64,000 nt of DNA from a virus. The DNA lies in the UHGV virus genome UHGV-0092003. One strand, given 5' to 3'. Numbering within the stretch: the stretch's first letter is position 1; the number at the start of each line of letters is the position of its first letter. The translations under genes were made by a program, and so were the position numbers. Below, piece after piece: positions 3,864 to 5,991 of the stretch. The notes under the pieces were generated by a model. That model did not search any database and was not told the origin of the DNA. It saw only the letters and a program-made list of their open reading frames with translations.

Positions 3864-3918
3864 TTGTCTGGCCGCTCGAACCAATTGAGTATAAAGAAAA
3901 ATAAATGGAGTGGTTTTA

Positions 3919-4368
3919 ATGAAAAAAACATTCATCGCATTAACACTTTCAGTGACCTTTCTTGTCACCGGCTGCGGCGAAGACAAAATGAAGGATGAGG
4001 CTGTTGAGTTTACGAAAGAAGCGATACTGAAGAAGCTGGCAGACCCGGAGTCGGCGTCCTTTTCTGATATCAAGTTCGTCAACACTAACGCTGAGAAGAC
4101 GCTCCCTATCGGCGAATATATTGTTTGCGGAAAAGTGAAGGGTAAAGATGCTCATGGAGAGGATTTTGAAACCGAGTTTTCTTCGGATTTGATGCTTGAA
4201 GTGTCAAAGTTTAATGACGAAAAAAAGGACTTCATGATCGAAGTTTTGCCTCGGTATAACTTTGACACCGGGATCATTGACCGCAGATACTATGATTATG
4301 AAATAGCCTGTTCAAAGGGTGTTGAAGCCTTCAAAAAGAATCGTGAAGAAAAGTCCTCATCCAAGTAA
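3919..4368 (+). CDS. lipoprotein moron (possible superinfection-exclusion lipoprotein)
   Basis: Signal peptide and lipobox LVTG|C. GGAG RBS 8 nt upstream. AT-rich gene set between two terminators inside the tail module. Confidence 0.5.
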   Translation: MKKTFIALTLSVTFLVTGCGEDKMKDEAVEFTKEAILKKLADPESASFSDIKFVNTNAEKTLPIGEYIVCGKVKGKDAHGEDFETEFSSDLMLEVSKFNDEKKDFMIEVLPRYNFDTGIIDRRYYDYEIACSKGVEAFKKNREEKSSSK

Positions 4369-4434: not shown

Positions 4435-4468
4435 TTGTAATATTGAAGTTAGTAAGTATATACTTACT
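4435..4468 (+). promoter_or_regulatory. candidate σ70 promoter (TTGTAA-18-TATACT) overlapping palindrome AGTAAGTATATACTTACT
   Basis: Palindrome at 4451–4468. The −10 lies inside the palindrome, upstream of the tube gene. Confidence 0.4.
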
Positions 4469-4512: not shown

Positions 4513-5004
4513 ATGGCTAATACCCATGTAAAAAACATCAAATTAGGTGCCTGTGCGGTTTCATTCGCTGGCACCGATCTCGGTTACACCAAGGGCGGCG
4601 TAGAGGTTGAAGTCTCCACCGAAACCCTGAAAGTGACCGTAGACCAGCTGGGACAAACCACGATCTCTGAGTTGATTCAGGGTCGTAACATCAAAGTAAC
4701 CGTGCCACTGGCAGAAAGCGTGCTGGCGAACATGGTTAATCTGATGCCTGGCTCCACCATGTCCACCGACACCAAAACTCTGAGCATCAAATCAGCACAG
4801 GGTGTAAACCTGGTTGATGTGGCGCAGCAGCTGATCCTAACCCCGCAGGACGGCACCGACTTCATTCTGACCCTGCCGAAAGCCGCTACTGGCGGTAACT
4901 TCACCATGGCGTATAAGTCTGATGACGTTCGTGTGTTCTCTGTGGAGTTCAATGCGTACCCAGATGATACCGGCGTTTTGGGAACTCTTTCTGCCCCAAA
5001 GTAG
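4513..5004 (+). CDS. major tail tube protein (V-like)
   Basis: 163 aa. Directly precedes the Ig-like ORF and the G/T chaperone pair, in lambda V-G-T-H order. Confidence 0.55.
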   Translation: MANTHVKNIKLGACAVSFAGTDLGYTKGGVEVEVSTETLKVTVDQLGQTTISELIQGRNIKVTVPLAESVLANMVNLMPGSTMSTDTKTLSIKSAQGVNLVDVAQQLILTPQDGTDFILTLPKAATGGNFTMAYKSDDVRVFSVEFNAYPDDTGVLGTLSAPK

Positions 5005-5006
5005 CA

Positions 5007-5264
5007 GTGACGGGCGTGACCGTGGCGCCGACTTCGGTATCGGTCAAAGTGGGTGCAACAGCTGCGCTGACTAAGACGATTGCCCCGTCAAACGCAGATG
5101 AGCAAGGTGGGACATGGACTTCGAGCAACCCAGCTATCGCAACCGTCGACGCCAATGGCGTTGTGAGGGGCGTAGCGGTAGGTAGTGCGAAGATTACGTT
5201 TACCACTAAGGACGGCTCAATTGTGTCTTCACAAGTGACCGTAACCGTAACCGCTGCTTCTTAA
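5007..5264 (+). CDS. Big_2 Ig-like domain ORF, probably expressed as −1 frameshift extension of the tube protein
   Basis: Lies in the −1 frame relative to the tube gene. Slippery heptamer C_CCA_AAG at 4995–5001 sits two codons before the tube stop. The ORF lacks its own SD. Confidence 0.5.
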   Translation: MTGVTVAPTSVSVKVGATAALTKTIAPSNADEQGGTWTSSNPAIATVDANGVVRGVAVGSAKITFTTKDGSIVSSQVTVTVTAAS

Positions 5265-5275
5265 TAGCAGTCTGT

Positions 5276-5305
5276 AAGAGGGTTCAGGAGAACCCTCAGT
5301 TTAAA
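5276..5305 (+). terminator. hairpin/attenuator-like structure
   Basis: Perfect 8-bp stem GAGGGTTC/GAACCCTC with loop AGGA and a weak U-tract. Confidence 0.35.
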
Positions 5306-5317
5306 AGGATTTTTGAA

Positions 5318-5635
5318 ATGACTAAGTTACTGGATCTGGATTCCATTCTTCCGCCGAAAAAAGAAATCAAAGTGGCTGGAAAAACCTATGCCGTCGCGGA
5401 AATGACTGTCGGTCTGTTCGCCAAAGTTAAAGCCTTTGAAGGCAAAGACATCGAAGCTATGTCAATGCTGGATCAGGTTGAAGCTTATGCCGAACTGGTG
5501 GCCGAAGTCATTCCTGACGTACCAAAGGAAGTGATTAATCGTCTGAGAATCCCGCAGCTGCAGCAGATCTTTTCTTTCGCCATGGAACAGGCAGAGGAAG
5601 AGAACGAAGCCGCGGCCGGAGAAGACGTAAAGTAA
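5318..5635 (+). CDS. tail assembly chaperone (G-like)
   Basis: 105 aa with acidic C-terminus. Immediately upstream of the tape measure gene, with the −1-frame T-like ORF overlapping its end. Confidence 0.6.
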   Translation: MTKLLDLDSILPPKKEIKVAGKTYAVAEMTVGLFAKVKAFEGKDIEAMSMLDQVEAYAELVAEVIPDVPKEVINRLRIPQLQQIFSFAMEQAEEENEAAAGEDVK

Positions 5636-5991
5636 TTTCCCGCGAAGAGGAATCCGGCGTCGTCACTGTCTCGATAGACTTCGGATTCTATTTCAGCCGA
5701 GTTATTGCTTATTACGCCATTCCGCCGCGAGAGATTCTAAAGCTGCCGCTGGCAACCTTCTGGATGCTTAGCCGCAACATAGACCGCCTAAAAGCCGAGG
5801 ATGACCTGAGAGTATTCCAGGTGTCACGGCTTTCTCAGGCGGGGGCGGAAGACGCTACGGCGTTTATGGAGGGTTTGCAATACCGGATAGGAAGACCAGT
5901 CGTAACCGATAAAGTCTACGATCCATCGAAAGCAAAAGCAGACCCTGACGCCAAAGAGCAATTAATGGAAATCTTTGGAAAAATAGGATAA
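5539..5991 (+). CDS. tail assembly chaperone T-like frame (likely G-T −1 frameshift product; first ATG at 5764)
   Basis: −1 frame open from 5539 and overlapping the G end. No SD before ATG 5764. Ends 5 nt before the tape measure start. Confidence 0.5.
   Translation, partial: SSENPAAAADLFFRHGTGRGRERSRGRRRRKVISREEESGVVTVSIDFGFYFSRVIAYYAIPPREILKLPLATFWMLSRNIDRLKAEDDLRVFQVSRLSQAGAEDATAFMEGLQYRIGRPVVTDKVYDPSKAKADPDAKEQLMEIFGKIG

Follow-up and report, generated by a model that had tools for sequence, protein, structure and literature searches.

The window analysed here, a stretch of 64,000 nucleotides (nt) from the virus genome UHGV-0092003, derives from an SSU5-like phage-plasmid of Klebsiella pneumoniae. 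The region under study is 99.8% identical to plasmid pB-KP1118-1 (109.6 kb), and a search with it retrieved 33 related Klebsiella plasmids. The structural module is collinear with that of SSU5 and the genome is plasmid-borne and ~110 kb in size, as in other SSU5-like phage-plasmids. A megablast search against a phage collection, which holds no characterised phage of the lineages described below, yielded no match. Within the tail module, the open reading frame (ORF) of a 163-amino acid (aa) tail tube protein overlaps a −1-frame sequence that codes for an immunoglobulin (Ig)-like domain of the Big_2 family (Table 1). In this article we present evidence that programmed −1 ribosomal frameshifting at a “shifty stop”, a slippery heptamer abutting the tube stop codon, would join the two parts and yield a minor tube-Ig fusion protein, a reading to which we assign a probability of roughly 0.8.

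The gene order at the locus is tail terminator (PF12691, 3449-3829), tube ORF, G/GT chaperone and tape measure, and a Shine-Dalgarno (SD) sequence precedes both the tube ORF (AAGGAG) and the G ORF (AAGGA). A Pfam search with the 163-aa protein returned no match. The profile phrog_1280 matches this ORF at positions 1-163 of 248 (E = 8e-90) and the Big_2 ORF at positions 167-247, and thus, a single profile covers both parts. An AlphaFold model of the 163-aa protein, calculated with 50 homologues, reached a predicted local distance difference test score (pLDDT) of 79, and in a Foldseek search of the PDB its best matches were siphophage tail tube proteins, including those of YSD1, lambda (V) and mycobacteriophages; the entries 9jgh, 8zdj, 6xgr and 7t2e are among the matches. 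Based on the phrog_1280 profile, the gene order, the model and its PDB matches, the 163-aa product is identified as the major tail tube protein. This gene shares 67-70% amino-acid identity with its SSU5 counterpart.

Table 1. Features of the tube/Big_2 junction and of the adjacent chaperone gene in the window
Feature	Position	Strand	Remarks
Major tail tube protein ORF, 0-frame product	4513-5004	+	163 aa; ends tct gcc cca aag TAG
Slippery heptamer C_CCA_AAG	4995-5001	+	X_XXY_YYZ phase, inside the 0/−1 overlap
0-frame stop TAG directly 3' of the heptamer, likely “shifty stop” stimulator	5002-5004	+	position fixed in 8/8 lineages
−1-frame extension, short linker VAV followed by Big_2 Ig-like domain	5001-5264	+	87 codons + TAA; Pfam Big_2 E = 2e-19
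GTG, Val166 of the predicted fusion, possible reinitiation codon	5007-5009	+	2 nt after the tube stop; 8/8 lineages
GC-rich hairpin after the Big_2 stop	5278-5297	+	8 bp; end of the tube + Big_2 expression unit
Tail assembly chaperone G ORF	5318-5635	+	ends gtA AAG TAA; A_AAG 5629-5632, stop 5633-5635; phrog_893 match
−1-frame T extension of the chaperone	5629-5991	+	includes 75-aa ORF 5764-5991; phrog_1131 match

A sequence-only reading of this region had claimed that the tube ORF ends in a heptamer of the same type as the lambda site G_GGA_AAG, that a −1 slip at this site leads straight into the Big_2 ORF, and that the latter starts immediately behind the tube stop without an SD of its own. 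The heptamer, its phase and the end of the tube ORF are all found in the sequence as described, and both the lambda motif and the motif found here are X_XXA_AAG sites of −1 tandem slippage. The −1 frame is open from position 4968, which leaves an overlap of 34 nt with the 0 frame, and the extension is open in the −1 frame only. Following a slip, translation would continue as CCC AAA GTA GCA GTG ACG..., giving ...LSAPKVAVTGVTVAPT..., and reach the TAA at 5262-5264. The predicted fusion protein comprises 250 aa (163 + 87 codons) with the junction ...LSAPK/VAVTGVTVAPT..., and the tryptic peptide predicted for SAPK/VAVTGV is VAVTGVTVAPTSVSVK. The 85-aa ORF, which gene prediction starts at the GTG, is the part matched by Pfam Big_2 (PF02368), and the 20 nt 5' of this codon (ctttctgccccaaagtagca) are devoid of GGAG, AGGA and GAGG.

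The motif CCCAAAG occurs six times on the two strands of the window, compared to seven copies expected. Since it is not enriched, an argument from this single sequence rests only on its exact placement within the 34-nt overlap. The chance of finding CCCAAAG in phase within the overlap is estimated at ~6e-4 (12 in-phase positions × ~5e-5), and the chance for any X_XXY_YYZ heptamer at ~5% (12 positions × 1/256). The comparative data are much stronger evidence than these estimates.

Loci were gathered from plasmids, IMG/VR and SRA assemblies, and eight distinct lineages with a 163-aa tube ORF were recognised, comprising the window, L006/L016, L008, L083, L086, L088, L090 and L093 (“frameshift lineages”). 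A scan of GTDB species representatives yielded further relatives only of the in-frame, A-run or Ig-less types described below. In all eight frameshift lineages the tube ORF ends with C_CCA_AAG and an adjacent stop codon, namely gcC CCA AAG followed by TAG (window) or TAA (L006/L016 and L083), agC CCA AAG TAA (L008), or aaC CCA AAG followed by TAA (L086 and L093), TAG (L088) or TGA (L090). The identity of the stop thus varies, and its position is never shifted. The −1 codon overlapping the stop encodes Val (GTA or GTG) in every lineage, the Big_2 domain is intact in the −1 frame throughout, and the junction reads PKV[A/K/S/N]V[T/A][G/S].... Moreover, at least 20 independent Klebsiella plasmid assemblies match at ≥98%, and the two inspected (L004 and L005) have the junction of the window.

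The frameshift lineages are widely diverged. Their tube proteins are 96% down to 75% identical to that of the window, the Big_2 domains share 86% down to 41% amino-acid identity with each other, and synonymous divergence is near saturation, with a proportion of synonymous differences (pS) of 0.5-0.9. The Big_2 sequences contain no stops, and the ratio of nonsynonymous to synonymous changes (dN/dS) is 0.11-0.34. Given this purifying selection, the absence of stops and the Big_2 match, the −1 ORF codes for a polypeptide that is functional and under selection. Among 97 degenerate tube codons that are invariant at the amino-acid level, only five are also codon-invariant, and the CCA and AAG of the heptamer are two of these five. 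Ten of the 163 tube codons have an invariant third base, and these include the three consecutive codons at the heptamer. No invariant run in the gene and the 33 nt downstream is longer than CCCAAAGT (8 nt), and the second longest measures 5 nt. The heptamer is therefore conserved beyond the amino-acid requirement, and the stop codon directly 3' of it also belongs to the conserved signal. In L008 the 0/−1 overlap spans only 16 nt, and accordingly, the shift is confined to the last five codons.

An SD sequence in front of the GTG is present in none of the frameshift lineages, and an independent Big_2 gene initiated from an SD and ATG, which the sequence-only reading had regarded as telling against a fusion, was found in no homologue. 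The co-variation of heptamer and −1 ORF to which the same reading had looked is seen: the eight diverged lineages retain the heptamer, the adjacent stop and an intact, selected Big_2 domain. Its central proposal, a programmed −1 frameshift that fuses Big_2 to the tube protein, is thus supported by the eight split lineages, by relatives in which both parts are fused in frame, and by the lack of any SD-led Big_2 gene.

These in-frame relatives carry tube and Big_2 in a single ORF of 245-253 aa and include SSU5, Klebsiella ST13-OXA48phi12.3, E. coli PhiR41_1 and most of the IMG/VR relatives. Their junction reads ...ggC CCA AAG CCG GTT..., the Big_2 extension of the window is colinear with their C-terminal domain, and compared to them the window has 2 additional nt exactly at the domain junction, which is not a change in homopolymer length. 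Since the homologues fuse both domains in frame, the question is whether the split locus represents a broken fusion gene or a recoded gene. Nine in-frame lineages served as a control. In these the codons of the heptamer show no conservation above background, and two of the nine have a broken heptamer. The nucleotide constraint on the heptamer is hence found only where the frame changes. This excludes both sequencing error and the decay of a pseudogene, and a simple two-gene model fails to account for it.

C_CCA_AAG is also present at the domain boundary of most in-frame relatives (L001, L002, L019, L042, L056 and L073). There, a stop closes the −1 frame after 1-3 codons (PKAG*, PKA*), such that a slip would give a tube-only protein. 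It is a possibility that these relatives use the heptamer to produce a tube-only form; the motif is not specially conserved there and its presence is perhaps coincidental. Distant relatives without an Ig domain were also observed, namely L068, L070, L080, L102 (Xenorhabdus szentirmaii; region ~1970-2070 of these four loci), L071 and L103 (Morganella), as well as the proteins P0042, P0043 and P0046. Most of them end a 163-aa tube gene in A_AAA_AAG (nine As) with a stop directly 3', L071 and L103 have one extra codon (GTG) between the heptamer and the stop, and the −1 frame encodes a low-complexity, charged extension of 25-50 aa. This extension is possibly a relic, or else a recoded tail of another kind, and the run of nine As is long enough for transcriptional slippage, too.

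Neighbour-joining trees of the tube domain (200 bootstraps) do not group the frameshift lineages together: the eight formed one clade in 0/200 bootstraps, L093 grouped with the SSU5-type in-frame clade in 189/200, and the in-frame L019, the linker of which is 7 aa longer, grouped with the other frameshift lineages in 143/200. In the Big_2 tree, L093 is placed with the frameshift group, and its different position in the two trees suggests modular exchange at the junction. The frameshift junction is present on both sides of the deepest split of the tube tree. According to these placements, the type of junction has switched or moved more than once.

Taken together, we propose the following mechanism. 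Most ribosomes would terminate at the TAG and release the 163-aa tube protein, and a minority would slip by −1 on C_CCA_AAG, where the codon paired with tRNA-Pro changes from CCA to CCC and that paired with tRNA-Lys from AAG to AAA. Slow decoding of the stop codon may give the P-site Lys-tRNA on AAG time to re-pair with AAA, as in the classical “shifty stop” effect (Weiss et al. 1987, as cited in PMC5009743). The slipped ribosomes would read GUA GCA GUG and onward, giving rise to the 250-aa tube protein with C-terminal Big_2 domain. Both products are expected to co-assemble in the tail tube, so that some subunits would display an outward-facing Ig domain, as with gp17.1/gp17.1* of SPP1, possibly for an adhesion-type role. 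In E. coli, no −1 heptamer is more efficient than C_CC.A_AA.G, and A_AA.G is the best of the tetramers (PMC4066793; PMC5009743). The best heptamers support ~0.3% frameshifting without a stimulator, ~3.7% in a favourable 3' context and 54% with a pseudoknot (PMC4066793; PMC5009743).

Several observations weigh against this mechanism or limit its yield. Downstream stimulatory RNA is not supported by single-sequence folds of 49-100 nt (z-scores −1.4 to +0.5), and an RNAalifold consensus of the eight lineages (−3.6 kcal/mol) shows little covariation and no conserved structure. The sole candidate for an upstream SD-like stimulator, a Gly codon GGN ~12 nt upstream, was unconvincing and was dropped. 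Thus, neither a hairpin or pseudoknot 3' of the site nor a clear SD 5' of it, the usual stimulators of programmed −1 frameshifting, was detected, and the adjacent stop codon is the only conserved flanking feature and the only candidate stimulator. In view of the values published for this heptamer, ~0.3% without a stimulator and ~3.7% in a good 3' context, the fusion may be rare. All eight frameshift lineages retain the GTG located 2 nt behind the stop, which also fits reinitiation. Finally, p2 of Kp1604 (OK644452), one plasmid of the wider SSU5-like Klebsiella group, was not inducible to phage particles (PMC8969562). Since an RNA stimulator is not detectable, the fusion is likely a minor product, and from sequence considerations its yield would be low, in the percent range.

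Termination followed by reinitiation, the main rival explanation, accounts for the split gene in another manner: ribosomes would end at the TAG and restart at the GTG, producing a free 85-aa Big_2 protein and no fusion. This start lies very near the stop, which favours coupling, and gene callers list the 85-aa Big_2 as a separate ORF. The GTG itself is retained in 8/8 frameshift lineages, whereas none of the 11 invariant Val residues of the tube protein is codon-invariant (0/11), and GTC encodes the corresponding Val of the in-frame L019. Yet, one invariant codon among ~11 downstream codons is not significant after multiple looks, and no lineage has an SD in front of it. Reinitiation also leaves unexplained why the heptamer is the most conserved stretch of the gene, and specially so only where the frame changes. 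Moreover, a lone Ig domain would lack an obvious attachment to the virion, while in all in-frame relatives the domain is fused to the tube. We thus regard reinitiation as an unlikely sole explanation, although it could coexist with frameshifting. Transcriptional slippage would have the same protein outcome if RNA polymerase dropped one nucleotide on the C4A3 run in some of the transcripts, and the nine As before the stop in L068 and L070 form a tract long enough for this process. Productive transcriptional slippage is not known to occur on runs shorter than ~8 identical bases. The runs in the window are just 3-4 C and 3 A, and several lineages have only CCC (aaC CCA AAG), which makes this explanation the most improbable of those considered.

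It is also conceivable that a 2-nt insertion or an assembly error has broken an SSU5-type tube-Ig gene and that Big_2 is a decaying remnant. The relatives have one in-frame ORF, and truly broken variants do exist, namely L063 and the truncated E. coli proteins P0012, P0013, P0015 and P0025. Furthermore, the gene tables of the Prokaryotic Genome Annotation Pipeline (PGAP) for L004, L006, L007 and L009 skip one or two locus tags at the tube gene (e.g., ABDC16_RS00065), which suggests that PGAP flags it as a frameshifted pseudogene. However, the split is kept in eight lineages with near-saturated synonymous divergence, the Big_2 domain has acquired no further stops or indels and retains its low dN/dS, and the stop codon varies in identity but never in position. 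Dozens of independent assemblies agree, and the insertion is not a change in homopolymer length. The conservation data effectively refute inactivation, which appears very improbable, and a sequencing or assembly error was rejected on account of the many independent assemblies and the diverged lineages. We therefore favour programmed frameshifting.

Disrupted tube-Ig genes were observed elsewhere in the family, in SSU5-type loci such as L063 (~1960-2160) and in E. coli proteins (P0012, P0013, P0015, P0025 and P0033). Their lesions are deletions or frameshifts inside Big_2, the break is not accompanied by a slippery site, and the proteins have odd C-terminal tails. These genes provide a picture of real decay within the family.

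A GC-rich hairpin of 7-8 bp follows the Big_2 stop in 6/6 loci examined, five of which are of the frameshift type and one is the in-frame SSU5 (L006 2318-2338; L008 2279-2296; L083 2253-2271; L090 2250-2270; L001 3765-3785). The arms differ between loci and complementarity is kept. The presence of the hairpin after Big_2 in both architectures indicates that the expression unit ends after Big_2. In L006 a T-run follows the hairpin, and the element therefore probably acts as a leaky terminator, or else stabilises the RNA, behind the major tail gene.

A site of similar design is found 630 nt downstream of the tube site, at the end of the tail assembly chaperone gene G. The gene was found in 19 of 20 loci, including frameshift, in-frame and outgroup loci, and it ends with gyA AAG and TAA or TAG in 18 of the 19. 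In the window the −1 frame at G is open from ~5572 to 5991, and in other lineages it opens just 2-3 codons before the G stop and runs for ~118 conserved codons. The 75-aa ORF contained in this frame probably codes for the C-terminal portion of a GT protein that arises by frameshifting. The G/GT frameshift is reported to be conserved in long-tailed phages (Xu et al. 2004, as cited). In this phage-plasmid family, A_AAG plus the stop is the only possible G/GT shift site and has the same design as the tube site. As G ends in A_AAG and a stop with T in the −1 frame, the same type of site is used twice in the tail module.

Two further genes of the window were noted. Between the tail terminator and the tube gene lies an inserted ORF of 152 aa (3910-4368), the product of which starts with a lipoprotein-type signal (MKKTFIALTLSVTFLVTGC...), and a promoter-like site is located at 4435-4464. 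This ORF is absent at the same position in SSU5 and L006, has only PHROG matches of unknown function, and has the appearance of a moron, a candidate surface or exclusion lipoprotein. A second Big_2 protein of 147 aa is encoded just 3' of the major capsid gene (868-1311). It has its own ATG and SD and is thus not a frameshift product. The SSU5 counterpart, SSU5_006, comprises 307 aa, and accordingly, the Ig-domain content of the head is also variable in SSU5-like phage-plasmids.

Some wider ideas follow from the two sites and the two types of junction, which we consider rather doubtful at present: the stop codon might act as stimulator at both A_AAG-stop sites, the Ig density might be tuned by switching of the junction, the junction might be ancient or a mobile module, and in-frame relatives might produce a tube-only form. 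If the stop were the stimulator, the kinetics of termination would determine what fraction of the tube subunits is Ig-decorated, as well as the G:GT ratio. If tuning applied, the in-frame junction would yield ~100% decorated subunits and the frameshift junction a few percent.

The results bear on genome annotation, as in widespread Klebsiella phage-plasmids the tube gene is called as a 163-aa ORF plus an orphan Big_2, or probably as a pseudogene. The proper annotation would be a single gene with ribosomal slippage, which is relevant for judging whether these elements are intact phages. With regard to recoding biology, the family represents an unusually clean comparative case, in which related lineages have either version of one junction and only those that require the heptamer keep it under constraint. 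It is suited to measuring stop-stimulated −1 frameshifting without RNA structure, and to comparing low and full Ig density of the tail in adsorption.

A search of the searchable literature library for a tube frameshift in SSU5-like elements found no paper, and the closest known system is SPP1 gp17.1/gp17.1*. According to the accounts of SPP1 in PMC6316719 and PMC9022992, recoding at the tube stop yields two tube proteins from one gene (Auzat et al. 2008), and gp17.1* bears a C-terminal Ig-superfamily domain of ~87 aa, which is located on the outside of the tube and dispensable for tube formation. Both systems share recoding at the end of the tube ORF, an Ig-superfamily extension and a frameshifting chaperone gene next door. 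In contrast to the −1 shift on C_CCA_AAG UAG proposed here, SPP1 employs a +1 shift on CCC UAA; moreover, its domain is of the FN3 type instead of Big_2, and the tube proteins have no detectable sequence relationship. The ratio of the two forms (~3:1) was measured for SPP1, whereas the share of the fusion in the phage-plasmids is probably lower.

Recoded Ig domains in phages are documented beyond SPP1. As summarised in PMC5009743 and PMC9022992, Fraser et al. (2006) described Ig-like domains that certain phages encode in frame but their relatives out of frame, in the latter case with expression via +1 or −1 slippage; the examples include the T3 capsid, Lactobacillus A2 and the major tail protein of Listeria A118, A500 and PSA. 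The SSU5-like family likewise holds in-frame and frameshift states side by side, and the switching of its junction matches this pattern. The earlier cases, however, belong to other phage groups, and the shifts in the Listeria tail proteins are +1. Lambda gpV and T5 pb6 also combine a tube core with a C-terminal Big_2 domain, as does the long product here (PMC9022992). Unlike in the phage-plasmids, where only frameshift products would carry Big_2, their domain is in frame and every subunit has it. Regarding the slippery motif, the tube site resembles lambda G/GT (G_GGA_AAG) and E. coli dnaX (A_AAA_AAG), which are X_XXA_AAG sites of −1 tandem slippage on the shift-prone tRNA-Lys. The dnaX site makes use of an SD on its 5' side and a hairpin on its 3' side, and the shift there brings translation to a premature end, while at the tube site no structure or SD was detected, the stop abuts the motif, and the shift would lengthen the protein. 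Thus, the tube-Ig frameshift represents a general phenomenon already documented in other phages, of which the SSU5-like phage-plasmids provide a new and well-supported instance.

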